Below, in pieces: positions 5,548 through 60,195 of a DNA stretch of 64,000 nt; the stretch's first letter is position 1; the number at the start of each line of letters is the position of its first letter. Under the pieces are notes generated by a model. The model saw only the letters and a list, made by a program, of their open reading frames with translations, was not told where the DNA came from and did not search any database. This stretch comes from Verrucomicrobia bacterium UBA6982 (lineage in GTDB: Bacteria > Verrucomicrobiota > Kiritimatiellia > RFP12 > UBA3636): assembly GCA_002448475.1 (NCBI GenBank), contig DJYI01000049.1, positions 5,475 through 69,474 on the forward strand. Reading direction: 5' to 3'. The position numbers and the translations under genes were made by a program.

Positions 5548-6606
5548 TTGAGGGCGCTGCACGCCCGTCCCCGAATGATCTCGATCGTCGAAGAACTCCG
5601 CACGAACCGCGAAAGCGGCGCAAAACGGCTTGAAGCCGAATACAAGGCCGGTCTCATGACTCTGGCCCGGCGCTTCCACGCCGACGAAGGCGACGCCGAG
5701 GAACTCGTCAACCGCACGCTGGCCGAAGTCATCGCGGGCATCGACGCCTATCTGGAGCAATCCGCCTTTTTCGGCTGGATGTGCAAGATCCTCGAAAACC
5801 AATACTCCAAGGACGTGCGTCGCAAGTCGAACAGGACAATTGTCGAGGCACCCGAAGCATTGGACGCGGCGGACGACGCGGATGCGGCCAACCGGATTTT
5901 CCGCGAAGTCGATGCGGCGATTCTCCGCGACGCCATCGCCACGCTTCCCGACGACATGAAGGACGCGCTCATGCTCCGCTATTTCATGGACATGCCCGTC
6001 GGGCGCGTGGCGAAAATCCTGTCGGTCCCGGAGGGCACCGTGAAGTGGCGCCTGCATTGCGCCCGGCTCACGCTCTCCGCCAAGCTCGGCGCCGCCGCGA
6101 AGAAGCCGGGCGGCAGGTCCGTCCTCCTCGCGCTGGCGCTCTGCGGCTTCGCGGCACTTGGCGCGGCGGTGTGGAACCTCGGGTGGGGCGAGCCGTCCCG
6201 GCGAGCCGACGCCCCCGCCTGGGCCTACGGCGAGGGGACGGGCGGGACCGGCGGGACGGGCGGGACCGGCGGGACGGGCGGGACCGGCCTTCAACCTTTC
6301 AACTTTTCATCCGAACAATCAACTGAACAACCCCAACAGGAAACCTCCTCTATGACCATACGCACACGTTCCGCGGCGCTGGGCGCCGCCTCCGCGCTGG
6401 CGCTTGCCAGTGCGCCTTCCGCCGCCTCCGGCGACGAATACCAGTTCATCGTCTCCGGCGATCCGGCCGCCGCCGCGACGGCGGGCGTCGTCGAGGCGGA
6501 ATCGACGGCCGGCCCGCTGGACGTCCGCCACCATGCCGTCGCCGAATCGCGCGCGATGGCCCTTTCGTCGATCAAAAACGGCAGTTTCGTCATTGTCGTC
6601 AGGTAG
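5548..6606 (+). CDS. ECF-type sigma-70 factor (regions 2 and 4) whose ORF continues, with no stop codon, through a TM segment, a GTGG tandem repeat and an intergenic-type octamer array into a small secreted-protein coding segment.
   Basis: Sigma region 4 helix-turn-helix LMLRYFMDMPVGRVAKILSVPEGTVKWRLHCAR. It is followed by the TM-like segment SVLLALALCGFAALGAAVW, then EGTGGTGGTGGTGGTGGTG, then LQPFNF (from the CTTTCAAC array), then MTIRTRS.... Confidence 0.6.
   Translation: MRALHARPRMISIVEELRTNRESGAKRLEAEYKAGLMTLARRFHADEGDAEELVNRTLAEVIAGIDAYLEQSAFFGWMCKILENQYSKDVRRKSNRTIVEAPEALDAADDADAANRIFREVDAAILRDAIATLPDDMKDALMLRYFMDMPVGRVAKILSVPEGTVKWRLHCARLTLSAKLGAAAKKPGGRSVLLALALCGFAALGAAVWNLGWGEPSRRADAPAWAYGEGTGGTGGTGGTGGTGGTGLQPFNFSSEQSTEQPQQETSSMTIRTRSAALGAASALALASAPSAASGDEYQFIVSGDPAAAATAGVVEAESTAGPLDVRHHAVAESRAMALSSIKNGSFVIVVR
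6232..6290. repeat. Tandem repeat of an 18-bp unit (GGGACGGGCGGGACCGGC), about 3 copies, encoding (GTGG)n.
   Basis: Direct reading of the sequence 6232-6290. Confidence 0.8.
6291..6320. repeat. CTTTCAAC octamer array (CCTTCAACCTTTCAACTTTTCA).
   Basis: The same motif array is found at 9781-9803, 9893-9920 and, reverse-complemented, at 63740-63773. Confidence 0.7.
6352..6606 (+). CDS. Possible separate small secreted protein (85 aa) with a signal peptide and a C-terminal ...NGSFVIVVR.
   Basis: ATG at 6352 is followed by the signal-peptide-like MTIRTRSAALGAASALALASAPSAASG. It is in the same frame as the sigma ORF with no intervening stop. The C-terminal motif is shared with four other secreted proteins. 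Confidence 0.4.
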   Translation: MTIRTRSAALGAASALALASAPSAASGDEYQFIVSGDPAAAATAGVVEAESTAGPLDVRHHAVAESRAMALSSIKNGSFVIVVR

Positions 6607-6638
6607 CAAACTCGCCCAAAAACAAAGGAGAACACACC

Positions 6639-8009
6639 ATGAACCTCGCAAAACGTCTTTCGCTTCTCGCCTGCCTGTCCGCCGCGTCGGCCGCCACGGC
6701 CGTTGACGTGACCAACGTCAAGATGACCCAGAACACCGTCAACTGCAAGGTGACCATCACCTACGAACTCTCGGGACCGGCCGTCGTCACGCTCGACATC
6801 CTCACGAACGCCATTCCGAATGCTACGACCGGGTGGACATCCATTGGCGGCCAATACATCTCCAGCGCAACGGGCGCCGTATGGCGCAAGGTGACGGACG
6901 CCGACGCCGCGAACGGCGTCTGCACGATCACATGGAAGCCGGCCGATTCGTGGCTCGACGAGAGCGGCGAAGGCTTCAAGGTGGGCGACGGCTGCGCCAA
7001 GGCCGTCGTCTCGGCCTGGCCGCTCGACAATCCGCCCGACTACATGGTGGTGGACCTCTCCGCCTCAGCGCAGCCGAACACGCAACGCTACTACCCGGCC
7101 GTCGATTTCCTCCCCGGCGGGTTGCTCGACAACGGCGACTACCGCGAATCCTCGCTCGTGATGCGCAAGGTCCCCGCCGCCGGCGTCGAGTGGACGATGG
7201 GCAGCGTCGCCGAGCTTGGCCGCATCACTGCCAAAGAGGCGACGCACAAGGTGCGACTTGACGCCAACTACTACCTCGGCGTATTTCCCGTGACGCAGTC
7301 GCAGTGGGCACTCGTCCAGCCGAGCCGCCCGAATCCGTCATGCTTCCAATACGAGGCCGACAAAAAGTGGCGCCCCGTCGAATATGTCTGCTACAATGAG
7401 CTACGCCTCAGCAATTCAGAAACAAGCGGAGCGGCGACCTACTACTGGCCGAACCCTCCGCACGCCAACTCCTTCATTGGTCGTCTGCGCACGAAGACCG
7501 GCATCGCGTTCGACCTGCCGTCTGAGGCGCAGTGGGAGTTCGCCTGCCGCGCAGGGAACGGAGAGGGCAAGTGGGGCGACGGTTCGGACTACCTGTCCAA
7601 CACGACCGACGCCAACCTTGCGGCCCTGGCCTGCTACGGGCGCGCAGACATCCAGAACCAGGTGTCCGAGGGCAACACGACCTGGTCCGCCGCCGACGGC
7701 GGCACGATGCCGGTTGGCACCCACGCCCCGAACGCATGGGGCTTCTACGACATGAACGGCAATGTATTCGAGCCGTGCAACGACTGGTTCGAGAACAATC
7801 CGTCCGCGCATGGGGGAGCCGTGAACGTGGATCCCGCCAATCCCGCGAAAGACCTCACCGGCAACGCTGGCACATATCGTGTCTGGCGTGGAGGCTCGTA
7901 TCGCCACTCCGCCGCATCGTGCCGTAGCGCCTTTCGCACAGAGGGAATTTCCAACGGCCGCTACAACATCGCAGGCGTCCGCGTAGCGTGCCCCGCAAGC
8001 GCGGAATAA
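6639..8009 (+). CDS. Secreted protein with a C-terminal formylglycine-generating-enzyme (FGE/SUMF1)-like domain.
   Basis: Signal peptide. Motifs HKVRLDANYYLGVFPVTQSQW, WEFACRAG, YDMNGNVFEPCNDW and RVWRGGSYRHSAASCRSAFR are typical of the FGE-sulfatase domain family. A good RBS (AAAGGAG) lies upstream. Confidence 0.8.
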   Translation: MNLAKRLSLLACLSAASAATAVDVTNVKMTQNTVNCKVTITYELSGPAVVTLDILTNAIPNATTGWTSIGGQYISSATGAVWRKVTDADAANGVCTITWKPADSWLDESGEGFKVGDGCAKAVVSAWPLDNPPDYMVVDLSASAQPNTQRYYPAVDFLPGGLLDNGDYRESSLVMRKVPAAGVEWTMGSVAELGRITAKEATHKVRLDANYYLGVFPVTQSQWALVQPSRPNPSCFQYEADKKWRPVEYVCYNELRLSNSETSGAATYYWPNPPHANSFIGRLRTKTGIAFDLPSEAQWEFACRAGNGEGKWGDGSDYLSNTTDANLAALACYGRADIQNQVSEGNTTWSAADGGTMPVGTHAPNAWGFYDMNGNVFEPCNDWFENNPSAHGGAVNVDPANPAKDLTGNAGTYRVWRGGSYRHSAASCRSAFRTEGISNGRYNIAGVRVACPASAE

Positions 8010-8057
8010 GGCTGAAAGGCTTTCGAAGCCCCTGCGGCGATCATCCGAACCCAAGAC

Positions 8058-9761
8058 ATGAAAACAATATTCCTTCTCGCCGCCGGCTTCTCCCTGGCGG
8101 CGGGCGCCCCGGCGTGCGCCGCCGGGCAGGATACCCGCCTCGCCGAACACGGCGGCCGCGTCTGGCGGCTCTCGCCGGGCTGCCGCATCGACGGCGACCA
8201 GCTCACGGTCTCGATCCCGGAGGGCCTTTACCCGCAGACCCAGTGGGCGCGGACGGACATCGACCTCTCGCCGTGGGAGGGGCGCGGCTTCGAGGCGCAC
8301 GTCCGGGTCCGCGGCGAGGACATCGCCACGCCGACGCAGCCGTGGCTCGGCTTCAAGTTCATGCTCAGCTGGCGCGACCGGTTCACGGGCGCCATGCGCT
8401 ATCCCGGCGCCGGCGCGCCGCTCGGCGCGTTTCCGTGGCAGGACGTCTCGTTTCGCCAAATGGGCTGGTTCCGCGGTGCGGATGGCCCCGGCACACTCCA
8501 TCTCGGGCTTCAGGGAACATCCGGCACCGTCGTCTTCGACCTCTCGTCGCTCCGCATCGGCGATCTCGCGCCGATCTGGCCCGTCACGAACCAGAACCAC
8601 CGGTGCGAGTATTTCGCACCGAAGGGAATGTTCACAAATCTCAAGTGTTCACAAATCGACAATGCCACAAATAACAATTGCGGCGCGCCCGGCGGTCGCG
8701 CCCTACCGGTAGGGGCCGACCGCCGGGCGGCCCGCAATTTTGATTCGCCATTTATGAACAATGATGAACAATTGTCATTTGTGAACAATGCCGCCAAGCG
8801 GCTCGCTCCCCTAAGGGGCGTGATGTCGCCAAGCGGCCGCGACATGAACGAGGACGACTTCGCGACGCTCGCCTCGTGGGGCGCGACGCTTCTGCGCTAC
8901 CAGATGGTGCGCGACTGGCACGGCGTGGGAACCAACGCCGACCTCGAAGACTACGACCGCTGGCTGGACGGCAAGCTCGACCATGTCGAGGGCGTCGTGC
9001 TGCCGCTCGCCCGGAAATACGGGCTGAAGGTCGCCATCGACCTGCACGTCACGCCCGGGGGACGCGACGCCTCGCACGAAATGAACATGTTCCACGACGC
9101 GACATTCGCCGGCCATTTCGTCGAATGCTGGCGACGCATCGCGCGGCGCTTCAAGGGCAACGGCGACGCGATCTACGGCTACGACCTCTGCAACGAGCCG
9201 CAGCAGCAGCGCGCGGCGCCGCCGGGAATGGACGGCTGGAACCTCCAGCGCCGCGCCGCCGAGGCGATCCGGGAAATCGACCCGGAAACGCCGATCATCG
9301 TGGAATGCAACGCCAACGACGCGCCGGACGGCTACCGCAACCTCTCGCCGCTCACCCTGACGAACGTCATCTACGAAGTCCACATGTATGGGCCCGGCGA
9401 CTTCACGCACCAGGGGATCCAGGGGATGTCGATGGCGCGCTGCCGCTGGCCGGACGCGTCGCGCGGATGGGATGCTGGCTTCCTGCGCTCCGCGCTCGCG
9501 CCAGTGCGCCAGTTCCAGCTGCGCCACGGCGCGAAAATCTACGTTGGCGAGTTCAGCGCCGTCGCGTGGGCGGAGGGCGCGGACATCTGGCTCCGCGACA
9601 TCATTTCCGTTTTCGGGGAATACGGCTGGGACTGGACCTACCACGCCTTTCGCGAATGGCGCGGATGGAGCGTCGAGCACGAAGGCCCGGACATCGACCA
9701 CATGGCGCCGTCCGCCGACAACCCGCGCAAGCGCGCCCTTCTGGAGGGCCTGCGGCGCTGA
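8058..9761 (+). CDS. Secreted CBM-like plus GH5 glycoside hydrolase, paralog of the C-terminal part of 233..2659.
   Basis: Signal peptide MKTIFLLAAGFSLAAGAPA. GH5 motifs GYDLCNEP and VGEFSAV. Alignable to ORF1 across the beta-sandwich and the TIM barrel. Confidence 0.8.
   Translation: MKTIFLLAAGFSLAAGAPACAAGQDTRLAEHGGRVWRLSPGCRIDGDQLTVSIPEGLYPQTQWARTDIDLSPWEGRGFEAHVRVRGEDIATPTQPWLGFKFMLSWRDRFTGAMRYPGAGAPLGAFPWQDVSFRQMGWFRGADGPGTLHLGLQGTSGTVVFDLSSLRIGDLAPIWPVTNQNHRCEYFAPKGMFTNLKCSQIDNATNNNCGAPGGRALPVGADRRAARNFDSPFMNNDEQLSFVNNAAKRLAPLRGVMSPSGRDMNEDDFATLASWGATLLRYQMVRDWHGVGTNADLEDYDRWLDGKLDHVEGVVLPLARKYGLKVAIDLHVTPGGRDASHEMNMFHDATFAGHFVECWRRIARRFKGNGDAIYGYDLCNEPQQQRAAPPGMDGWNLQRRAAEAIREIDPETPIIVECNANDAPDGYRNLSPLTLTNVIYEVHMYGPGDFTHQGIQGMSMARCRWPDASRGWDAGFLRSALAPVRQFQLRHGAKIYVGEFSAVAWAEGADIWLRDIISVFGEYGWDWTYHAFREWRGWSVEHEGPDIDHMAPSADNPRKRALLEGLRR
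8626..8790. mobile_element. MITE-like element (TGTTCACAAAT-TIR family, about 165 bp) inserted in frame in the GH5 paralog linker.
   Basis: 5' end ATGTTCACAAATCTCAAGTGTTCACAAATCGACAATG. 3' end ATGAACAATGATGAACAATTGTCATTTGTGAACAAT (inverted). GC-rich palindromic core GCGCGCCCGGCGGTCGCGCCCTACCGGTAGGGGCCGACCGCCGGGCGGCCCGC. The ends are similar to the TIRs of the composite element at 10876..11380. It encodes 61 extra aa at the same linker position where ORF1 carries a different element. Confidence 0.7.
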
Positions 9762-10875: not shown

Positions 10876-11380
10876 TCGAAGAATTGTTCACAATTGACAA
10901 TTGAGACAAATGTTCACAAATGGGAAATGACAAATTCATCTTCTGTCCTGTTCGTTAAGATTTCGCCGGGCCGTTGTCACGCTTGCGTAGAAAATCTTTA
11001 TCAATTCTTCGGTTTCCTGCAATACGTGCGACACGAGATTTTGATCGGCATAATTCCTCATCGCGATGATACGAAGCCACATTCTGGTTTCAATGAGTTC
11101 CTTGAGCGCGATATTTGTCTTGTGGGCGAAATCTTTGCGCGATTCCGGAACGCACGCCTCGGCATAATTGGCTGCAACCGACGTGGCTGCTCGAAACAAT
11201 TGGTCCTGGAGGTGCGCTTTCCCGATTTTGGAAACCATGGATTCGCAAACATCGATGGCCGCTGCTGCAAAAGCCGCTACCCGGAATTCAATTTCGGAAG
11301 ACGTTAGCATGGCAAATTGCGTTTTGTTATTTGTGAACAATTGTTTCAATTGAAAATTGTGAACACTCTAGCAGAGCGCG
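10876..11380. mobile_element. AT-rich (about 45-48% GC) ~0.5-kb element with ~50-bp imperfect terminal inverted repeats of the TGTTCACAA family. It carries a four-helix-bundle gene and replaces the middle of an AAA-ATPase gene copy.
   Basis: Left TIR ATTGTTCACAATTGACAATTGAGACAAATGTTCACAAAT. Reverse complement of the right TIR AGTGTTCACAATTTTCAATTGAAACAATTGTTCACAAAT. Low GC compared with the flanks. Flanked by the N- and C-terminal fragments of the ATPase paralog. Confidence 0.7.
10936..11310 (-). CDS. Four-helix-bundle protein of the 23S rRNA intervening-sequence / DGR Avd-like family (PF05635/TIGR02436-like).
   Basis: Motifs LQDQLFRAATSVAANYAEACVPESRKDFAHKTNIALKELIETRMWL match the family consensus (L..Q..RAA.S...NIAEG ... 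S.K.F..........E....L). Length about 124 aa from ATG 11310; the ORF track's TTG at 11349 lies inside the TIR. Confidence 0.75.
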   Translation of the reverse strand: MLTSSEIEFRVAAFAAAAIDVCESMVSKIGKAHLQDQLFRAATSVAANYAEACVPESRKDFAHKTNIALKELIETRMWLRIIAMRNYADQNLVSHVLQETEELIKIFYASVTTARRNLNEQDRR

Positions 11381-11577
11381 ACTGCGTCGCCCTTGGCGTT
11401 GATTTCGCGGACGAGCGCCTTGACGGTTGTCGTCTTGCCCGTCTGTCGCGGCGCGTGGATGACGAAATACGTCTCCTGCTCGACAAGGCGCCGAATTTCC
11501 GGCATCCGGTCGAGAGCGGGCAGCATGTAATGCTTGGCGGGAAAGCAGGGGCCCGCGACGTTGAAGAACTTTTCCAT
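11378..11577 (-). pseudogene. 5' fragment (first ~66 codons) of the second AAA-ATPase/PD-(D/E)XK gene copy, ending at the element junction.
   Basis: Encodes MEKFFNVAGPCFPAKHYMLPALDRMPEIRRLVEQETYFVIHAPRQTGKTTTVKALVREINAKGDAVALC*, near-identical to the N-terminus of 18658..20232. The upstream region also shares the TGGTAGCAT -10 element. Confidence 0.7.
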
Positions 11578-11743
11578 TTGAACATCCGTGTCGCCGACAC
11601 GGAGAATGCTACCATAATGCCACCCCCGGGACAACAGGCCGCACGCGGGCGCGCTGTTGGCGAAGGCCGCAGCGGTTGGCGGCGGCCGTCGAAGTCGTTG
11701 CCGGAGGCGTTGCGGACGCGGGCGCCGAGGTCGCTGAAGGGTG

Positions 11744-11932
11744 TCAGAGGCATCCGAGAAGGATGCCGGAAATGCCGAGGACGAAACCCGCCGCCTGCCT
11801 CGCATCAAGGCGCTCCCGAAGAACGAGCGCACCGTAGGGGAAGTATCCGGCGATGCAGGCGGCGACGAAGACGCGCCCGTCAAGCCAGCATGTGAGCGTT
11901 CCGTGCAAATCCTCGGCGTCGAGTTCTTTCAT
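11744..11932 (-). CDS. Small (62 aa) membrane protein with two hydrophobic segments, translationally coupled (ATGA overlap) to the upstream GH gene.
   Basis: Strong GC3 bias. The start ATG overlaps the stop of 11929..13710 by 2 nt. No recognisable family. Confidence 0.4.
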   Translation of the reverse strand: MKELDAEDLHGTLTCWLDGRVFVAACIAGYFPYGALVLRERLDARQAAGFVLGISGILLGCL

Positions 11933-15085: not shown

Positions 15086-17005
15086 TCACCGGATGACCAT
15101 GGTGAAGGCCAGCCCCCCGGCGCATTCCAGGGCTCCCATGTCCACGCCGCTGTATTTCACGCGCTTGTTGCCGAGGATGTCTGTCTCGTTCTGTTGCCCG
15201 TCGAGCAATAAGCCACTGTCGCGGCAAGGCGAACCCGGCTTGATAGCAAACGCCGACGGGGAAAATCCAACAATTACCGTAGGATGATCAGTAACCGTCA
15301 CGCCCTCGAACTTCGGGTCCTTGTCCTCGCCGCTGATGCAGCCTGTCTGGTTTTCAACCGTCCCGATGCGCCAGAAAGAGTTGACTGCGGAGGGGATGTA
15401 TTCCACGCTCCCGGCAATGCAGTTCGTCATATAGGTGCGGGAAACCTGTGCCGAGCTGTTGTCGTTGCCCCAGACCGTGCAGTTGACGGCAACCGCTTCA
15501 GCTTCCCCGGCATCCGCGCCGATGCCGCTCGCCGCGAGCGGGTTAATCAACTCGTTGCGGTTCCCGTACACAAGCGTTCCGTAGTGGGAACCCTTGCAGA
15601 TCGCGTAATACATTGCCGCACGATTTCCGACGGCGATGCAGTTGCGGGTGTTGGCGTTGTATGTCGCGCCACCCTCGGCGGCGTATGCGTAGTTGTTCGT
15701 CATCACGCAGTTCTCCAGATATCCGCTGAACGCGGCGCCGCCGTATTTGGCGCTGTTCCCGGCGAAAACGCAGTTCGTCGCAAGAGATCCGAATGCGCCG
15801 CCGCCAAAGACACGGTAGTCTTCGCCGCTGGCGGCGTTGTTCAGGATCTCGCATCCCGTCAGGCTGCTGCACGCCGCGCCAGCGCCGCCGTTGTAGCTGG
15901 TGTTGCCCTCGATGACCGAATCGACGACCTCGCAATCCATCACGCCGCCGCCCGCGCCGACGCTATAGTCGTGACCGTAGTTCTCAAACACGAACGCTGT
16001 CGGTCGCGTGGATGCATTGCCCCTGACGTCGCAGTTGGAGACGACACACTGGTAGGCGCCGCCACCCAGCCCGCCTCCTTCGGGGTCGGTGTAGGCGGCC
16101 GTGTTTCCGACGAGTGTGCAATCAAAGAGCTGGCAGTAATCGCGAGTGCCGTAGATTGGCGCCGCGCCCGCCCCGCCGCCGTATGTTGAGCGGTTCCAGC
16201 CAATCAGGCAGTTGTATGCCTTGGTCACGCACACCGGCAGGTCAAGGGTGCCATTCTGCCTGCCGCCGGCGATGCCGCCGCCGCAGAAGCCCGCATAGTT
16301 GTTGGTGACCACGCAATCGTGGAGAACGGCGTGGAAGACTCCGCCGCCCGACCCCTCGACTTTCAAATACCATTCCGGGTCGTCATAGCCCGGAGTCCCC
16401 ATGTTGTGGCGAACCTCGTTGTTGCGAATCACGCAGTCGAGCCACAGGCCGCCGAAGTTCGCCCCCGTGTAGAGCGCCGAGCAATTCTCCACCACGCAGT
16501 TGGAGGCTGTGAACGCAGCTTCGGGATTGCCGATGAAACCGCCATCCATGCAGAAGCCCGCGCCCTGGTAGTCCGTGTAGCCGCCGGAAACAGTCAGGTC
16601 GCGGATGACGTGCCCTCCTACGGATGGTAAGCAGTAAAAGATGCGCATCCCGTCCGTTGCGGGAGACCCGACAAGTCGCACGTCCTCAGGGTTGCCGCTT
16701 TCGCCAACGAACGTCACGCCGCTGACCTGCGGAACGAGGTAGACACCTGAACCATAAGAGGGATAGGGGCTCTTGCTCTTGTCGAGGTTGTATGTTCCGA
16801 CGGCAAGATGGATGGTGTCGCCACTGGCGACCTGGCCGTTGTAGAGGACATTCATGACGTCGCCCCGATCCGAGGGTGATGTGCCGTTGCCGGTGCCGCC
16901 GGGGGCGACATACCAGTCGGAGGCGGTGGCAGTGAGCGTGAACGACGCGGTGGTGACGGCCAGCGACGCGAGCCGCGTCGATAGTGGATGACGATTCGAG
17001 TTCAT
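15086..17005 (-). CDS. Secreted right-handed parallel beta-helix repeat protein (pectate-lyase-superfamily-like), C-terminus ...GGLAFTMVIR*.
   Basis: Signal peptide MNSNRHPLSTRLASLAVTTASFTLTATA. More than 10 repeats of the type C..NN..(x)GGA (NCVFAGNSAKYGGAAF, ENCVMTNNYAYAAEGGATY, and so on). Confidence 0.7.
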   Translation of the reverse strand: MNSNRHPLSTRLASLAVTTASFTLTATASDWYVAPGGTGNGTSPSDRGDVMNVLYNGQVASGDTIHLAVGTYNLDKSKSPYPSYGSGVYLVPQVSGVTFVGESGNPEDVRLVGSPATDGMRIFYCLPSVGGHVIRDLTVSGGYTDYQGAGFCMDGGFIGNPEAAFTASNCVVENCSALYTGANFGGLWLDCVIRNNEVRHNMGTPGYDDPEWYLKVEGSGGGVFHAVLHDCVVTNNYAGFCGGGIAGGRQNGTLDLPVCVTKAYNCLIGWNRSTYGGGAGAAPIYGTRDYCQLFDCTLVGNTAAYTDPEGGGLGGGAYQCVVSNCDVRGNASTRPTAFVFENYGHDYSVGAGGGVMDCEVVDSVIEGNTSYNGGAGAACSSLTGCEILNNAASGEDYRVFGGGAFGSLATNCVFAGNSAKYGGAAFSGYLENCVMTNNYAYAAEGGATYNANTRNCIAVGNRAAMYYAICKGSHYGTLVYGNRNELINPLAASGIGADAGEAEAVAVNCTVWGNDNSSAQVSRTYMTNCIAGSVEYIPSAVNSFWRIGTVENQTGCISGEDKDPKFEGVTVTDHPTVIVGFSPSAFAIKPGSPCRDSGLLLDGQQNETDILGNKRVKYSGVDMGALECAGGLAFTMVIR

Positions 17006-39182: not shown

Positions 39183-40461
39183 TTGCGCTTGCCGCGGTAG
39201 ATGACGTCGTTGCGGCCTGGCCCCGTGGAGAAAAACGTGATCGGGACGCCGAGCATCTTTTCGATCCAGAGCACGTAGCGTTGTGCCGCCTCGGGGATGG
39301 CGTCCCAGTCGCGCGCGCCGCGTATGTCGCACTTCCAGCCTGGGAACTTTTCAACAATCGGCTTGGCATCCTCAAGCCAGGGCGTGGGCGGGAACGAATC
39401 GACGCGCTTTCCGTTGATTTCGTAGGCCACGCAGACCGGAACCTCGTCCAGATATCCGAGGGCGTCAACGAGCGTGAGCGCGATCTCCGTCGCTCCCTGC
39501 ATCTCGCATCCGTAGCGCGTTGCCACGAGGTCGAACCATCCGACGCGCCGGGGACGCCCCGTCGTGGCGCCGTATTCGCCCTTGTCGCCGCCGCGGCGGC
39601 GAAGCTCCTCGGCCTCGTCGCCGAATATCTCCGAAACGAACGGACCTGCGCCCACGGCGCTGGAATACGCCTTCACGACTGTCACGACGTCCGTGATCGC
39701 GTAAGGCGGGATGCCGGCGCCGATGGAGGCGTATCCGGCAAGCGGCGACGAGCTCGTCACCATCGGGTAGATTCCGTGGTCGGGATCCTTGAGAGTGCCG
39801 AGCTGCCCCTCAAGCAGGATGTTTTTCCCTTCCCGGATGGCGTCGTGGAGCAGCTTGTTCGTGTCCGTTGCGTAGGGGCGGACGATCTCCGCCAGTTCCG
39901 CCAGTTCCGCCTCCACGGCGGCCGGATCGAGCGGCGGCCTGCCGTAAACGCCGACGAGCAGCGGGTTTTTCCGGTCGCAGAAGAGCTTTATGCGGTCCTT
40001 CATGCGCGGCAGGTGGAAGAGCTCGCACACCTGAAAGCCGATCTTCGAGAACTTGTCCGCGTAGAAGGGGGCTATGCCGCTTCTGGTCGAGCCGAACGAC
40101 GCCTTGCCCAGTCGAATCTCCTCAAGCGCGTCAAGTTCCTTGTGAACGTCGAGGAGAACCTGCGCCCTGTATGAAACGGCGATGCGCGGATCGATTCCGG
40201 CGGAGTGAAGATCGTCCAGCTCCTTTTTGAACGCGCGCACGTTGAGCGCGACTCCCGGCCCGATGACGTTGAGAGTTCTCGGATTGAAGCACCCGGAAGG
40301 GAGCAGATGCAGGGCGAAGCGCCCCTTGTCGTTTATGATGGTGTGACCCGCGTTTGCGCCGCCCTGAAACCGGACGACCACGTCCGCGTCGCGGGCCAGC
40401 AGGTCCGTCATTTTGCCCTTGCCTTCGTCGCCCCAGTTGGCGCCAACGATCGCCGTTGCCA
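39179..40461 (-). CDS. purA: Adenylosuccinate synthetase.
   Basis: GANWGDEGKGK P-loop, GGANAGHT, TTGRPRR, and so on. 427 aa. The ORF-track N-terminal extension to 42007 is spurious antisense. Confidence 0.9.
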
Positions 40462-40542
40462 TTTTAGTGAAACCTCCACGAAAGGAACGGCCGGGCATTC
40501 TGCCACAATCCCCGTCCAAAAGCAAAAAACCGACTTGTTGAT

Positions 40543-40571
40543 TCCGGGTCCGTTTTCGCGTAGAATCCGGG
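40543..40571 (+). promoter_or_regulatory. Putative sigma70 promoter (TTGATT, 17-bp spacer, TAGAAT) for the proteolipid-exosortase-EpsI operon.
   Basis: gacTTGTTGATTccgggtccgttttcgcgTAGAATcc. About 60 nt further downstream an RBS AGGAAG lies ahead of ATG 40634. Confidence 0.5.
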
Positions 40572-40633
40572 GCCGTCGGGTCCACAGCGGCCCGCTTAAC
40601 CGCAGTTTCGCAACAAACAGGAAGAGACAAGAA

Positions 40634-41107
40634 ATGCAATACGACACCGCTCTGTGCGTCGCAAGCGCGATCGCAGTCGTCGGCATCAGCGCCGTGGGTT
40701 CGGCAATCGGCATCGGCAAGGCGGCATGCGCCACAATCGGAGCATGGAAGAAGTGCTACGCCCAGAACAAGCCCGCGCCATACACGCTCTTCACGTTCGT
40801 CGGCGCGCCGCTCACGCAGACTCTTTACGGCATGATCCTCATGTCGATGCTGCTCAATGTGGCTTCGAAGCCGATCCCCGGAGCCGGAGTCGCCTCTCTC
40901 GTTCTGGCTCTTCTTGCCGGTTCGGGCATCTGCGCCTCGGCGATTTTCCAGGGCCAGGCCGCCGCCGCCGGTGCCGACGCCCAGGCCGAAACGGGCAAGG
41001 GCTTTACGAACTACCTCGCCGCGATCGGCGTCATCGAAACCGTCGCGATCTTCGTGATGGTGTTCGCCATCTTCGGCATTCTCCGCCTCGGCGCCGCCGC
41101 GGCGTAG
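40634..41107 (+). CDS. V-type/A-type ATPase proteolipid (K/c subunit)-like four-TM protein, an orphan with no other V-ATPase genes nearby.
   Basis: 157 aa, duplicated hairpin. Resembles NtpK: PLTQTLYGMILM (compare LPGTQGLYGFVIA) and ICASAIFQGQAAAAGADAQAETGKGF....IGVIETVAIF with a Glu in TM4 at the ion-binding position. Confidence 0.6.
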   Translation: MQYDTALCVASAIAVVGISAVGSAIGIGKAACATIGAWKKCYAQNKPAPYTLFTFVGAPLTQTLYGMILMSMLLNVASKPIPGAGVASLVLALLAGSGICASAIFQGQAAAAGADAQAETGKGFTNYLAAIGVIETVAIFVMVFAIFGILRLGAAAA

Positions 41108-41113
41108 TGATCC

Positions 41114-42061
41114 ATGTCCGGCGCCGCCTCCTTCCGGCTCCGCGCCGGCAATCCCGAAACCGTCGCGCGCAGGTGTCTTTTCCTGCTCGCGACGGTCGCG
41201 GCCTACTGCCTCTTTTCGTTCTACGGCAACGATTCGGCCAAGGAGGGCGTGTCGGTGTTCTCTTGGGTCGCCATGCACTGGCGGCTCGACGCCCATGACT
41301 TCGGCGCCATTCCCTGGACGATGCTGGCGGTGGGCGCCCTTGTGACGTGGCGCGAGCGCGGGGCCCTCGCTGCCGCTCCCGTTTCGCCCTCGTGGCGGGG
41401 CGTGGCGATGGTCGCCATCGGGCTTCTTCTGCATGTGGCCGGCTATAGGTCGCAACTGGCCAGGCTGTCGCTTGCGGCGTGCGTCGCCGTGTTCTGGGGT
41501 ATTCCGTGGGCGATATGGGGCGGCGAGGTGGCGCGGCTGCTGCGCTTTCCCGCCGCGTATGCGCTGCTTTGCCTGTGCGGCTCGATTCTTGTCGATCTCA
41601 CGATGCCGCTGCGCCTGCTTTCCAGCGCCCTGGCCGCGTTTCTCCTCAAGGGGATAGGCATAGCCGCCTCGTGCGACGGCACTGTCGTCTATTCTGCGGC
41701 CGGCGGCGGATTCCAGTTCGACGTCGCGGACGCATGCTCCGGTCTTCGCTCGCTCATTACCATGACCGCCCTTGCGGCGCCGTATGCGTATTTCACGATG
41801 GGGACGACCGGCAAGAGGCTCCTTCTCTTCGCCCTTTCCGTTCCGCTCGCGATGGTTGCCAACGCCCTCCGCATCTTCACCCTCGGCGTAGTAGCGGAGT
41901 GGATCGGGATGCGTCTGGCGATGCAACTTTACCACGATCTTTCCGGATACATCGTTTTCTTCCTGTCGATCATGCTGCTTATGGCGGCCGGAACGGCAAT
42001 CAACCAAGACTGGGGGGCCAGGCTATGCTCGCTCAAGCAAAGAAGGCGCTACCGGGTCTGA
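41114..42061 (+). CDS. Exosortase (EpsH/Xrt family transpeptidase).
   Basis: Polytopic membrane protein with the catalytic-region motifs DVADACSGLRSL (Cys-Ser-Gly) and ANALRI (Asn...Arg). Confidence 0.8.
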   Translation: MSGAASFRLRAGNPETVARRCLFLLATVAAYCLFSFYGNDSAKEGVSVFSWVAMHWRLDAHDFGAIPWTMLAVGALVTWRERGALAAAPVSPSWRGVAMVAIGLLLHVAGYRSQLARLSLAACVAVFWGIPWAIWGGEVARLLRFPAAYALLCLCGSILVDLTMPLRLLSSALAAFLLKGIGIAASCDGTVVYSAAGGGFQFDVADACSGLRSLITMTALAAPYAYFTMGTTGKRLLLFALSVPLAMVANALRIFTLGVVAEWIGMRLAMQLYHDLSGYIVFFLSIMLLMAAGTAINQDWGARLCSLKQRRRYRV

Positions 42062-42945
42062 CGGCGCTGGCGCTTGTCCTTGCCACCATTGCGGCCCTGT
42101 CCGGCGACAGGGTGATATATGGCGACCCAACCGGTCCCGTGCCGCTCGAAATGCCCGCGACGCTTGGGCCGTGGAGCGGCGAGAAGGTCCGTTTTTGCCA
42201 GAGCGACCAGTGCGCGGCCTCGTTTCTGGTTTCGACGCTCCCCCCCGACGCCGCCGAATGCCCGATGTGCGGCGCTCCTCTCGGCGACATTTCCGTGGGT
42301 GAAATGTCCCTTCTGCCGGAGAACACGCCGATTTTCCGCAGCGCCTACCGCCGCGCCGGGCATCCGGACGTAATGGCCACGTTCGTGTTTTCTGGCATGG
42401 AGCGCCGTTCAATCCACAAGCCCCAGCGCTGTCTTGTCGCCCAGGGTAACCGCATTACCGACGAATACACTCTCCACGTGCCGAACGACGTTTCCGACCC
42501 CGACTCGCGCATGTCGGTGCGCGTGCTGGAAATCTCGCACCCGGTGCGCGGCGCCGACGGCAAGGTGACCGGGCAGAACGCGAGCGTTTACGTTTACTGG
42601 CTTTTCAATCCGGAGCGGGAGACGGTCCATCACTGGGTGCGGCTCGGATGGATGCTTTTCGACAACGCCTTCCGCTCCTACCGTCCGCGCTGGGGATACG
42701 CCTCGATCACGATTCCCCGCGATCCAGAGTCTCCCGACGCCTGGAGGGCGGAACTGGAGGACTTCCTTCCCCGCCTGTATCCGACCGTCACGGCGCTTCG
42801 CCGCGATCTTGATTCGCGGCGCGACCGGGTGTTCAGGCTCTCAGGCCATTCCTGGGACTCCAACGTTTACGAAGGCGACAACGCGGCTCTGACGCGCCAC
42901 ATCAGGCCCGGTCCCGCCAAGCCGGCCCCCAAAAAAGAGAAATGA
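42025..42945 (+). CDS. Exosortase-associated EpsI-like protein with an N-terminal TM anchor and a Cys4 zinc-ribbon insertion.
   Basis: Overlaps the exosortase 3' end. TM segment LPGLTALALVLATIAAL. CQSDQC...CPMCG. The position and size fit EpsI-family partners of exosortases; similarity is weak, so this is inference. Confidence 0.5.
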   Translation: MLAQAKKALPGLTALALVLATIAALSGDRVIYGDPTGPVPLEMPATLGPWSGEKVRFCQSDQCAASFLVSTLPPDAAECPMCGAPLGDISVGEMSLLPENTPIFRSAYRRAGHPDVMATFVFSGMERRSIHKPQRCLVAQGNRITDEYTLHVPNDVSDPDSRMSVRVLEISHPVRGADGKVTGQNASVYVYWLFNPERETVHHWVRLGWMLFDNAFRSYRPRWGYASITIPRDPESPDAWRAELEDFLPRLYPTVTALRRDLDSRRDRVFRLSGHSWDSNVYEGDNAALTRHIRPGPAKPAPKKEK

Positions 42946-42978
42946 CGTTCCGGGCCGCCATGGCCGGGAACGTCATTT
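42940..42978. terminator. Bidirectional intrinsic terminator hairpin between convergent genes.
   Basis: AAATGACGTTCCGGGCC-gccat-GGCCGGGAACGTCATTT (16/17 bp stem), with an A-tract upstream for the reverse direction. Confidence 0.5.
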
Positions 42979-43002
42979 GCGGGCGGATTTGCTGGTCCGC
43001 CG

Positions 43003-43956
43003 CTATTTTGCTGATGGCTCCGCAGCCTTTTTGAGGTCGCGGATTGCGGCGAACATCACGCTTGGATAGTCGGAGGAGAATCCGTCGCATCCGAGATCGA
43101 AGAGGTCGAAATACGTCTGCTCCCGCTCGCCGCCCTCGAAGGGGATGGAGCAGACAGGGATGCCATGCTCGTGAAACTCCTTCACGAGAGATTCGACGTA
43201 GGATGCGCGCGGAACGAATTTCTCGGCAGCGTCCGGGTTGCAATACGTGTGAAGCGAGACGGCTGAAATTCCCGCGAAGCCGCCGGCTCTGACTTCCGAC
43301 ATGATTTTCTCGAAATGCGACTCGAATCGCGCAATGTCCGCCTCGTTGTGGTCAGGGGCGGGCACCGGCCAGGTGCCGATCCACAGCAGCGTCTTTCCGC
43401 CTGGGAGGATTCTGGTCCATTCAACGGCCTTGGAATAGTCCTGCCCGGTGTAGTAAACCTGGTCCTGGACTCCGGCCTCCACCGCCTTTCGCGCGATCTC
43501 CGCGGGGCCGATGCCCTTTTCGTCAACCATGCACAGCCAGGTGGGGTGGCCCTTCATCGCGCCAAACACCTCGTCGATGGTCGGAATGCGGTGGTGAGAA
43601 AATTCCGGCGAGAGATATGAGCCGACGTCGATGTCCTTGATGCTGTCCCAGTCCAGCTGCGTGGAGACGTCCATCGAGGCGAGTTCCTCGGATATGCCGC
43701 GCGCAGTGCGGCGCAGAGTGGCGTCGTGCAGCATGATTCCCACCCCGTCGCGGGTGCGTCGGCAGTCGCATTCGAGAGCGGAGCCGTTGCGCCAGCACCA
43801 GAGAAAAGTCTCCAGCGTGTTGTCGGGACGCTCGAACTTCCCGCCGCCGCGGTGGACGTGGGAGATATGCATGAGGGATACGCGCTCGGCGGGAACCGGC
43901 GCATGGACAAGCCCGCCCTGCGAGGAGGACGGCTTCGTGGATTCTGTGTTGTTCAT
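43003..43956 (-). CDS. Glycerophosphodiester phosphodiesterase (GDPD) family protein.
   Basis: HISHVHRGGGKF..ENTLETF...LECD.R.TRDGV.IMLHD. Confidence 0.8.
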   Translation of the reverse strand: MNNTESTKPSSSQGGLVHAPVPAERVSLMHISHVHRGGGKFERPDNTLETFLWCWRNGSALECDCRRTRDGVGIMLHDATLRRTARGISEELASMDVSTQLDWDSIKDIDVGSYLSPEFSHHRIPTIDEVFGAMKGHPTWLCMVDEKGIGPAEIARKAVEAGVQDQVYYTGQDYSKAVEWTRILPGGKTLLWIGTWPVPAPDHNEADIARFESHFEKIMSEVRAGGFAGISAVSLHTYCNPDAAEKFVPRASYVESLVKEFHEHGIPVCSIPFEGGEREQTYFDLFDLGCDGFSSDYPSVMFAAIRDLKKAAEPSAK

Positions 43957-59157: not shown

Positions 59158-60195
59158 CTATGATTCCGCGACGGGTGGGGTAGTCTGTTCTGACTGGCTC
59201 GGCTTCGTAGCGGGAGCTTCCGGCTCCGTTGCGGGTTCCGTCTCAGCAGCGGGAGTTTCCGGTTCCGTTGCAGGGGCTAGCTCAGCAGCGGGAGGTTCCG
59301 GTTCCGTTGCAGGGGCTGGCTCAGCAGCTGGAGTTTCCGGCTCCGTTGCGGGGGCTGGTTCGGCAGCGGGAGTTTCCGGTTCCGTTGCAGGGGCTGGTTC
59401 GGCAGCTGGAGTTTCCGGTTCCGTTGCAGGGGCTGGTTCGGCAGCGGGAGTTTCTGGCTCCGTTGTGGTTTCCGGCTTTGGAATGAGTCGTTCGGCGGAA
59501 TACGATGGCACGACGAAAATCCACGGCTCGCCTTCAATCCGCAGATACCGGCCGGAACCATCCGGCAGGGGGTTCCCGACGGTGACAAGACGATTGGTGT
59601 CCGAACCGATTGTGACTCGCGCAACGGCGCCAGTCGCGAATCCGGTGGCATCCTCCGACGTGGTTGGGTCTGCCACAGAGGAGAATGAAATCCACGGCGA
59701 ATCCACGATCTTGGTTTCGCACCAGCGCTTCGGGTCGCCGTCGAAGGCTTCGAGCGCGTCGGCCACGAGAACGGTTTCGCCGTTGAACTCGGCGTAGCGG
59801 CCGAAGTCCCATCTCGGATGTCGCTCTCCGAGTGTGACTGAGGCGAGGGTTTTTCCCTCGGCGTCCTTGAGCGCAACCGGAGTCTGGTTGGCAATTTTGC
59901 GTCCCTTGGCCGTCTGCCCGACTTTGATGTCGAGCAGACGGCGGAGGTTTTCGAGGATTTTGGATCTGTCGGCCGGATAGCCGTGCATTGATTCCACGAC
60001 CCATCCGCCGTCGCCGGCGGCGATGGCAAGCGTTCCGGCCTCGATCCGCGAAACATCGGCGATCGAGACGTCCGGAAGGATTTTTCGCCCGTTCAGCTTC
60101 GGGGCTGAGTGCCTGGACTGTCCGTTGAGGAAGAAGGCCGCTGCGGAAACAACCGCTGCGACGGCGGCGAGAGTGGCGAGATTTTTAGCGTTCAT
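59158..60195 (-). CDS. DUF4340-like protein of the GldG-type ABC operon with a C-terminal tandem (PATEPETPAAEPA)n repeat.
   Basis: N-terminal TM segment. Located downstream of the ABC-2/GldG fusion as in gliding-motility-type ABC operons. About 6 repeat copies. Confidence 0.55.
   Translation of the reverse strand: MNAKNLATLAAVAAVVSAAAFFLNGQSRHSAPKLNGRKILPDVSIADVSRIEAGTLAIAAGDGGWVVESMHGYPADRSKILENLRRLLDIKVGQTAKGRKIANQTPVALKDAEGKTLASVTLGERHPRWDFGRYAEFNGETVLVADALEAFDGDPKRWCETKIVDSPWISFSSVADPTTSEDATGFATGAVARVTIGSDTNRLVTVGNPLPDGSGRYLRIEGEPWIFVVPSYSAERLIPKPETTTEPETPAAEPAPATEPETPAAEPAPATEPETPAAEPAPATEPETPAAEPAPATEPEPPAAELAPATEPETPAAETEPATEPEAPATKPSQSEQTTPPVAES
59222..59462. repeat. 39-bp coding tandem repeat, about 6 copies (GGAGTTTCCGGTTCCGTTGCAGGGGCTGGTTCGGCAGCG).
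   Basis: Direct reading. Confidence 0.8.

Follow-up and report, generated by a model that had tools for sequence, protein, structure and literature searches.

A V-ATPase subunit K gene in front of an exosortase/EpsI module in a gut Kiritimatiellia bacterium looks like a recent accident of gene order

Introduction

Does a membrane proteolipid that is encoded directly in front of an exosortase take part in protein sorting, or do the two genes only happen to be neighbours? The question is raised by a 64 kb stretch of DNA from a gut Kiritimatiellia bacterium, taken from a metagenome assembly and referred to here as the window. Within it, three tightly packed genes follow one promoter-like site; they encode a proteolipid resembling subunit K of the V-type ATPase, an exosortase and an EpsI-like protein. 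A first-pass annotation, made from the sequence, had seen in this arrangement an orphan c-ring protein that might work together with the exosortase. In the literature that we searched, no paper connects exosortases to subunits of the V-ATPase, and none describes exosortases in Kiritimatiellia. Below we ask what each of the three genes is, where the partners of the proteolipid may be, and how far the arrangement is conserved among relatives.

Results

Layout of the locus

The promoter of the form TTGATT-17-TAGAAT that had been proposed ahead of the proteolipid gene is present at 40538-40566 on the plus strand, as a sigma-70-like candidate with 9 of 12 consensus matches and a 17 nt spacer. The start codon of the K gene is found 67 nt downstream. 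Across the region 40300-43100 no second promoter-like site is seen; shuffled sequences contain a mean of 0.4, so that by itself the site is weak evidence. The same consensus scan of 40300-43100 shows no promoter-like site between K and the exosortase.

All three genes are on the plus strand. The first, annotated here as ntpK/atpK (V-type ATP synthase subunit K, 157 aa), covers 40634-41107. After a gap of 6 bp it is followed by an exosortase of the EpsH family (315 aa, 41114-42061), and the end of the exosortase gene overlaps by 37 nt with the gene of the EpsI-like partner (306 aa, 42025-42945), a protein that is anchored in the membrane by its N-terminus and carries a Cys4 motif. Further downstream, a terminator-like hairpin with an 8-pair stem and a T-rich tail (42982-43001, plus strand) sits between the EpsI-like gene and a convergent GDPD gene (43003-43956, minus strand), and a second hairpin is found on the minus strand at 42961-42942; both hairpins are consensus matches only. 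By layout the three genes form an operon, and they are probably co-transcribed from the K promoter.

Identity of the first gene

Gene 1 scores 165.1 bits against the model NF005174, "V-type ATP synthase subunit K" (cutoff 127), and 38.9 bits against PF00137, the ATP-synt_C family (cutoff 24). The motif IETVAIF is present, E135 is the single carboxylate in the last helix, and the equivalent position in the first hairpin is occupied by Q62. In an alignment with 34 orthologues, operon-encoded K subunits among them, the protein keeps all invariant columns, including Q62, T63, Q106, E135 and T136. Further, K genes standing at the end of E-x-A-B-D-I-K, B-D-I-K or D-I-K clusters share 55-69% identity with it.

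Sequence searches of the PDB are uninformative for this protein: phmmer with K against PDB sequences gives no match at E <= 0.001, while a profile of the 34 orthologues finds F-type c subunits only, weakly and in the first hairpin only. Structure prediction and a fold search were therefore used. The AlphaFold2 model has four long helices and a pLDDT of 91.6, and its top match in a Foldseek search of the PDB is 2bl2_A, the V-ATPase rotor of Enterococcus hirae (TM 0.77), followed by eukaryotic V-ATPase c subunits.

The description of the first gene as a K-like, four-helix proteolipid with a Glu in the last helix thus holds. Judged by profile scores, conserved residues and predicted fold, gene 1 encodes a genuine subunit K of the V-ATPase, orthologous to the K subunits encoded in operons. 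The first-pass annotation had left room for convergence, with gene 1 encoding some unrelated small membrane protein; the NF005174 score, the invariant residues and the 55-69% identity to operon K genes lead us to reject this. That subunit I is missing next to this K is a matter of gene order, and membership of the protein family is unaffected by it.

The K gene is also under purifying selection. Its dN/dS is 0.07-0.17 when compared with the closest free-standing relatives, and of 35 codons compared with a K fragment from a sister contig, 10 are different but just 1 changes the amino acid. Such selection points to a gene that is being used, and says nothing on what it is used for.

The exosortase and its EpsI-like partner

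The second gene is clearly recognized as an exosortase, with 149.2 bits against PF09721 (cutoff 25.7), 128 bits against TIGR02602 (cutoff 105.55) and 73 bits against the signature model TIGR04178 (cutoff 23). The Cys-Ser-Gly and Asn/Arg motifs that had been read from its translation are C208-S209-G210, continued by L211-R212, together with N250 and R253, all invariant in comparison with 36 relatives; H274 is at least 90% conserved in the same set. None of the named subtype models (XrtA-XrtZ, cyanoexosortases, archaeosortases) reaches its cutoff, and the best subtype scores are 134.8 for XrtA (cutoff 208), 123 for XrtD (400) and 108 for XrtV (313). About 100 sequence clusters are related to the protein at 44-85% identity, after which there is a sharp fall to 33% or less, and those of the 44-85% clusters that carry names given by their source are Kiritimatiellia. 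By these comparisons the predicted exosortase is intact, falls outside the named Xrt subtypes and belongs to a populous clade.

The third protein had been called EpsI-like and described as membrane-anchored, with a Cys4 zinc ribbon and in the usual place of EpsI. The position, overlapping the end of the exosortase, and the anchor are as described, and the family assignment depends on the model: the score against PF11984 (EpsI) is 35.4 bits, above the cutoff of 26.1, while against TIGR02914 it is 15.6 bits, below the cutoff of 42.8. The cysteines are C58, C63, C79 and C82; 4 orthologues, the most distant of them at 46% identity, keep them without exception. The corresponding pattern, CxN[ED]xC...CPxC, is found in 44 of 68 EpsI-like partners.

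In 61 of 65 loci the gene after the exosortase is EpsI-like, and elsewhere this pair comes after unrelated genes, for instance a GH2 gene at 9 bp or an MFS transporter at 63 bp. The conserved unit is the exosortase plus EpsI, and apart from this species and its sister it is kept without K at all loci examined.

Short hydrophobic-Arg C-termini

The nearby secreted proteins had been said to end in a short hydrophobic stretch and an Arg. Indeed, five ORFs in the window have such an end, three of them clearly with N-terminal signal peptides. A loose pattern search of the 64 kb detects no PEP-CTERM-like tail. Classical PEP-CTERM tails are present in related Kiritimatiellia loci, in one case beside a relative of this exosortase (locus L141). 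The hydrophobic-Arg tails contain no transmembrane helix and no PEP-like motif and have no link to the exosortase, and we set them aside as exosortase substrates. They may be an undescribed sorting tag, which is worth a separate study.

V-ATPase gene order and the partners of K

In a scan of GTDB genomes with a K profile, in which the source species itself is absent, the best of the matches listed is 87% identical. Among these matches there are 80 genome loci, and subunit I is located directly upstream of K in 75 of the 78 that are informative. Free-standing K genes are also found in several relatives, in varied contexts: relatives at 83% identity show the orders Aminotran_5-K-LemA and K-tRNA-Arg, and one at 64% identity stands free as well. 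From gene order, it appears that the V-ATPase operon is fragmented in gut Kiritimatiellia, down to a free-standing K.

The window fits this picture. A tblastn search with the E, DUF2764, A, B, D and I subunits of relatives finds no other V-ATPase subunit in the 64 kb, as the first-pass annotation had stated for the neighbourhood. A locus with the order PGI-D-I-HlyIII and no K, in which HlyIII starts 2 bp past I, comes from biosample SAMN02144231 (locus L107), and the same biosample gave a contig with the K-exosortase-EpsI triad. It was reached through the subunit I candidate P0280, which was picked by clustering the subunit I matches and by source pattern and is the only member of its group that was looked up. 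In tetranucleotide similarity to the window L107 ranks first of 131 non-self loci (r 0.979; chunks within the window give 0.982-0.991 among themselves), with a locus from a different species, L088, nearly as close. From the shared biosample and the composition only, L107 probably belongs to the same organism as the window, and partner subunits for K probably exist in the genome. K is therefore an orphan in its gene position; otherwise the term does not fit, as the K-less D-I locus probably supplies its partners. With its shared biosample, its composition and its D-I pair without K, L107 points to a K that most likely still serves a V-ATPase with scattered genes.

A different possibility is that K is a true orphan or a paralogue, i.e. 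that the rest of the V-ATPase has been lost or that another K is present in the operon, and that this K has some other role in the membrane, one without connection to the exosortase. The several relatives with a free-standing K agree with this, and so does the purifying selection, which shows a gene in use while leaving its purpose unspecified. However, L107, which shares a biosample with the triad and has D-I without K, is nearer to the window in composition than any other locus compared, and the protein keeps all residues that are invariant in operon-encoded K. In addition, a V-type ATP synthase has been described for chemiosmotic ATP synthesis in the cultured relative Kiritimatiella glycovorans (PMC5148204). 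We therefore regard an orphan or paralogous function as unlikely.

How widespread is the K-exosortase adjacency?

K next to an exosortase is found in this species and in one sister contig only, where the exosortase is 85% identical. Two lineages, with a 15% difference between their exosortases, thus share the 6-bp junction, and there may be some selection for co-expression. Beyond that, the adjacency disappears: an exosortase is found within 10 kb of K in 0 of 80 GTDB genome loci among the matches listed, K adjoins the exosortase in 0 of the 53 metagenome loci that extend more than 600 bp upstream of it, and it is not seen in any other relative with a free-standing K and readable downstream DNA, including those with K at 83% and 64% identity. 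Conservation of the triad therefore extends to one sister species and is absent further out.

Looser proximity is seen in one case. In the species of loci L102-L104 and L024, a B-D-I(-K) cluster lies about 7-10 kb from an exosortase-EpsI pair. This could be an ancestral linkage, and it could also be a hint of a non-random association. A single inversion of this order, with K-I-D-B on one strand and exosortase-EpsI on the other, does not yield the present order.

If the genes were coupled, a proteolipid ring or platform would work with the exosortase and EpsI, for example by coupling the sorting of C-terminally tagged proteins to ions or by providing a scaffold for it. The tight layout with its 6-bp gap, 37-nt overlap and single promoter-like site would suit such a machine, as would the junction conserved in the sister lineage and the V-ATPase cluster within about 10 kb of exosortase-EpsI in one relative. 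However, the pairing is missing from all of the other exosortase and K loci counted above, close relatives hold K in unrelated contexts, the exosortase-EpsI pair has unrelated upstream genes elsewhere, and K matches operon-encoded K at every invariant position. The first-pass proposal, that a c-ring protein on its own works together with an exosortase, fails on these grounds: it is largely refuted by the lack of conservation, and we consider it very unlikely. A variant, in which the exosortase operon took up the c-ring gene because the proteolipid had gained a second role with the exosortase and EpsI, as a membrane platform or in an ion-coupled sorting step, and the 6-bp junction was selected, is to our judgement extremely improbable.

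Finally, the chance that a chimeric contig joins K and the exosortase through an error of assembly or binning is negligible: all data come from metagenome assemblies, but different assemblers recovered K-exosortase-EpsI, with the same genes on either side, separately in at least 6 samples, the arrangement recurs in the diverged sister contig, and the composition is uniform across the window. Identical copies of the contig are available at NCBI and ENA, among them ERZ12302817 NODE_400 and ERZ1029114 k87_1989084.

Discussion

An ordinary subunit in an unusual place

In our view the probable explanation is that an ordinary V-ATPase K has been split from D-I and recently placed ahead of an exosortase/EpsI module, and that the products work separately. 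The V-ATPase operon would have been broken up in gut Kiritimatiellia, with K parted from D-I in this lineage. K would then have landed, recently, directly upstream of the conserved two-gene module, so that all three genes are now probably read from the K promoter. The K protein would join subunits encoded elsewhere and form an ion-translocating rotor, while the exosortase and the Cys4-bearing EpsI most likely process PEP-CTERM-type proteins encoded elsewhere in the genome, substrates that we infer. The neighbourhood of K and exosortase looks like a recent accident of gene order and not like a new sorting machine; a functional coupling of the two is not supported.

As a candidate for a new sorting machine the locus fails, and it serves mainly as a warning: genes packed tightly, like an operon, in a single species are no evidence that a functional system exists. 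The progressive break-up of the V-ATPase operon matters more widely, for annotation and for judging the completeness or metabolism of metagenome-assembled genomes, since an operon without K may be taken for a defective ATPase.

There is a minor novelty in an exosortase that matches no named subtype and is accompanied by a Cys4-bearing EpsI partner. The exosortase clade and the separate Cys4 EpsI are a reasonable target for the definition of a new family, and the Cys4 knuckle could give a clue to the function of EpsI.

Comparison with known systems

The sorting module resembles the EpsH system of Haft et al. 2006 (PMC1569441) in the conserved Cys, Arg and His motifs of the exosortase, and, as in the epsH-epsI pair of Methylobacillus (PMC1569441), a gene of the EpsI family comes immediately downstream. 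Unlike the PEP-CTERM/exosortase system, it has no exopolysaccharide genes around it. Related Kiritimatiellia loci do encode PEP-CTERM tails; the loose pattern search of the 64 kb detects none. Compared with EpsI as defined by TIGR02914 and PF11984, the partner protein is separate and not fused, scores below the TIGR02914 cutoff and has the conserved Cys4 knuckle.

The proteolipid differs from a usual subunit K in that no V-ATPase gene adjoins it and an exosortase lies downstream, and from its nearest relatives in being without their Ala/Glu/Pro-rich C-terminal tail. It shares only about 15-22% sequence identity with solved K or c subunits. Nevertheless, it scores above the equivalog cutoff of the NF005174/PRK06649 type of subunit K known from spirochaetes, chlamydia and PVC bacteria, and by fold its nearest solved structure is the NtpK rotor of E. 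hirae (PDB 2BL2), with which it shares four helices derived from a duplicated hairpin.

The proteolipid belongs to the V-ATPase K family

Three genes are packed on the forward strand: that of a 157-aa proteolipid, K (40634-41107, +), that of a 315-aa exosortase beginning 6 bp past it (41114-42061, +), and that of a 306-aa membrane-anchored, EpsI-like protein (42025-42945, +), which overlaps the exosortase gene by 37 nt. Within 40300-43100 there is a single sigma-70-like site, TTGATT-17-TAGAAT, which lies upstream of K (40538-40566), and the sequence pattern of a terminator-like hairpin follows 3' of the third gene (42982-43001). The neighbors are purA, upstream and divergent, and a GDPD gene, downstream and convergent. 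Since both the promoter-like site and the gene packing are found, the layout in the first-pass annotation, read from the sequence alone, was accurate.

The same annotation called K a V-ATPase K-like proteolipid, and profile searches bear this out. K scores 38.9 bits against Pfam ATP-synt_C (cutoff 24) and, more tellingly, 165.1 bits against the NCBIfam equivalog NF005174 'V-type ATP synthase subunit K' (cutoff 127). In an alignment with 33 homologues K retains all invariant positions, including Q62/T63 in helix 2, Q106 in helix 3 and E135/T136 in helix 4. PDB searches with K by sequence alone were uninformative. The AlphaFold2 model (pLDDT 91.6, four long helices) recovers a predicted V-ATPase rotor fold, as the proposed structural check had asked: the PDB entry nearest in fold is the V-ATPase rotor of Enterococcus hirae, 2BL2 (TM 0.77), and eukaryotic V-ATPase c subunits rank next. 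K belongs to a known family; what is unusual is only where its gene lies.

In the nearest clades, the C-terminus of many K subunits is extended by 10-45 residues rich in Ala, Glu and Pro (alignment A1, proteins P0001-P0038; for example at L013 6432-7007 and L016 3934-4515). This extension is absent from the window K and from K of the sister contig L101.

V-ATPase genes are scattered in related genomes

A tblastn search of the 64 kb window, with the relatives' subunits E, DUF2764, A, B, D and I as queries, gave no match. K thus stands apart from other V-ATPase genes here, in agreement with the first reading of its surroundings. Source-named homologues of K and of the exosortase come from metagenome-assembled genomes annotated as Kiritimatiellae/Kiritimatiellia, and many related genome records originate from animal gut, rumen or faecal samples.

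Relatives at 58-69% identity have K as the final gene of E-x-A-B-D-I-K, B-D-I-K or D-I-K clusters. A scan with one genome per species gave 80 K loci among the matches listed, 78 of them informative. Among these listed matches, subunit I lies directly upstream of K in 75/78 loci, and K is free-standing in the other 3. Further, A and B are missing beside D-I-K in the majority of the listed K loci, which means that break-up of the operon already extends across the class. In gut Kiritimatiellia such fragmentation, with A and B elsewhere, can be seen at L009, L025, L027-L035 and many other K loci.

In a small clade with 81-92% identity to the window K, K is free-standing wherever this can be checked. 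It stands in the order Aminotran_5-K-LemA, or between a divergent T2SS ATPase gene and tRNA-Arg; at L021 the 5 kb upstream of K hold no V-ATPase gene, and the contig stops ~110 bp past the K match. K is also alone in a relative at 64% identity. The dN/dS values of 0.07-0.17 within the clade indicate that the free-standing gene is maintained.

For the partner subunits, we used subunit I of a 65% relative as query, clustered the matches and chose P0280 by a source pattern matching the window organism. Its contig, L107, has the order PGI-D-I-HlyIII-LpxI (D-I at 6398-8888); HlyIII begins 2 bp past I, and there is no K. The biosample of L107, SAMN02144231, is also the source of one contig with all three genes. 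In tetranucleotide composition L107 is the nearest to the window among 131 non-self loci with a length of 6 kb or more (distance 0.0151, r 0.979), while 18-kb chunks of the window compared with its remainder give 0.0096-0.0140 (r 0.982-0.991). L088, from a second species, is nearly as near, so composition supports the link but does not settle it. A D-I locus without K is just the counterpart that a K outside its operon would call for. Kiritimatiella glycovorans, a cultured relative, is described as depending on a V-type ATP synthase to make ATP chemiosmotically (PMC5148204).

Taken with homology and gene order, these loci make it likely that K serves as rotor subunit in a V-ATPase with scattered genes. 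K would then head a transcript shared with the exosortase and EpsI genes, and the products of these two would act independently of K. Its isolation in the window would also suit a K that is truly orphaned or is a paralogue serving some other function. Given the retained invariant residues and the K-less D-I locus, we regard this as unlikely.

The K-exosortase junction is restricted to the window species and a sister lineage

The contig with the closest exosortase (L101, 85% identity) carries the 3'-terminal 35 codons of a K gene 5 bp before the exosortase; 10 codons but only 1 amino acid differ from the window K. Hence, the junction is inherited in the sister lineage. In the next relatives the exosortase-EpsI pair lies 9 bp behind a GH2 glycosidase gene (65% identity) or 63 bp behind an MFS transporter gene (60% identity). 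We also surveyed 80 metagenome loci with exosortase relatives at 33-66% identity. An EpsI-like gene comes next after the exosortase in 61/65 loci with room for one, while K is upstream in 0/53 loci having >600 bp of upstream sequence. The junction reaches the sister lineage and no further. The conserved unit is the exosortase with EpsI, which is commonly found right behind whichever gene chances to be upstream, K being one more neighbor of this sort.

It had been proposed that a lone c-ring protein is coupled to the exosortase. The adjacency in the window species and one sister speaks for this; elsewhere it is found at none of the 53 surveyed loci, and no exosortase lies within 10 kb of K at any of the 80 K loci (among the matches listed, one genome per species). 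The proposal is unsupported, and functional coupling appears very improbable. An assembly artefact can practically be dismissed, the three genes and their flanking genes being the same in independent assemblies from at least six samples.

In L102-L104, from a 65% relative, B-D-I is on the strand opposite to the exosortase and ~7 kb upstream of it (L102 1-3009 and 10001-11826). In L024, where B, D and I match their L102 counterparts at 98-99.8% identity, the cluster ends in K. This suggests an ancestral proximity of the two loci, which could be a route by which K reached the exosortase. A single inversion from the L102-type arrangement was rejected, as it does not reproduce the present order.

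Hydrophobic-Arg C-termini and other features of the window

The short hydrophobic-Arg C-terminus noticed on nearby secreted proteins is a correct observation. Five reading frames end in [FT][VT][ILM]V[VIF]R (FVLVVR, FVIVVR, FTMVIR, FVMVVR and TVIVFR), at 224 (+), 6606 (+), 15086 (-), 23372 (-) and 31508 (-). Three of the five proteins have clear signal peptides and one is cut by the window edge. Similar tails, TLIVFR and LTVVIR, occur in two other Kiritimatiellia-type loci, L088 and L031.

In one frame (5548-6606, +) an ECF sigma-70 domain is followed by a transmembrane segment, a Gly/Thr linker of the form (GTG)n and a part of ~85 aa with a signal-peptide-like start and the FVIVVR end; the frame either encodes a sigma/anti-sigma-like fusion or comprises two genes. 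NCBIfam 'choice-of-anchor' domains usually sit just ahead of a C-terminal sorting signal. In the protein at 15089-17005 (-), a near-cutoff 'choice-of-anchor Q' domain (NF041518, residues 586-628, 24.5 bits against a cutoff of 25) stops 11 residues short of the FTMVIR C-terminus.

None of the five tails has a transmembrane helix or a PEP motif. Lacking the helix, they are not standard exosortase substrates, and with no link to the exosortase either, we rejected them as substrates of the window enzyme. They may be a sorting tag of another, undescribed kind, or a shared terminal beta-strand.

Elsewhere in the window, a 39-bp tandem repeat (59209-59465, 6.6 copies, 89% matches) reads in one frame as repeated REFPVPLQGLV peptides. 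Two short ORFs at 10936-11883 (-) have third-position GC of 0.54 and 0.74, against ~0.8 in their neighbors, and one contains a P-loop-like motif, HAPRQTGKTT; judged by sequence, the two may represent an ATPase gene that is foreign or in decay.

The exosortase and its EpsI-like partner

The second gene is above cutoff on PF09721 and TIGR02602 and has the invariant Cys-Ser-Gly-Leu-Arg, Asn and Arg, as well as a conserved His, which confirms the exosortase with Cys-Ser-Gly and Asn/Arg motifs first read there. No named subtype model reaches its cutoff, the best being XrtA (134.8 bits against 208). The clade comprises ~100 clusters at 44-85% identity, followed by a gap down to at most 33%. Tandem exosortase-EpsI pairs occur at L134 (3978-7613) and L135 (4046-7751), with the second exosortase ~27% identical to the query.

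Exosortases cleave and re-attach proteins with a PEP-CTERM-type signal (Haft et al. 2006, PMC1569441). With its conserved motif residues intact, the window enzyme should do the same. A pattern search found no PEP-CTERM-type tail in the window. Such tails are present in related Kiritimatiellia loci (e.g. ...VPEPGAIVCLILAALVLLFAWMFRARKVRA and ...IPEPTTWALIGVGGLAIALRRRFGKR), and one adjoins a relative of the window exosortase.

The reading of the third product as EpsI-like with a Cys4 motif stands in part: it passes Pfam EpsI (35.4 bits, cutoff 26.1) and its four Cys are invariant among orthologues down to 46% identity, but it scores only 15.6 bits on TIGR02914, below the cutoff of 42.8. A CxN[ED]xC ... 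CPxC knuckle is found in 44/68 EpsI-like partners of the exosortase clade (L101-L188); we found no description of it in the family libraries searched or in literature searches. The knuckle is on the predicted extracytoplasmic side, and C136, a fifth Cys, does not vary among the four closest orthologues.

In the window the EpsI-like partner is a gene separate from the exosortase. The pair is a member of the EpsH/EpsI system, yet falls outside every named subtype. A Cys4-bearing EpsI together with an exosortase clade of unnamed subtype is a modest extension of a known kind.
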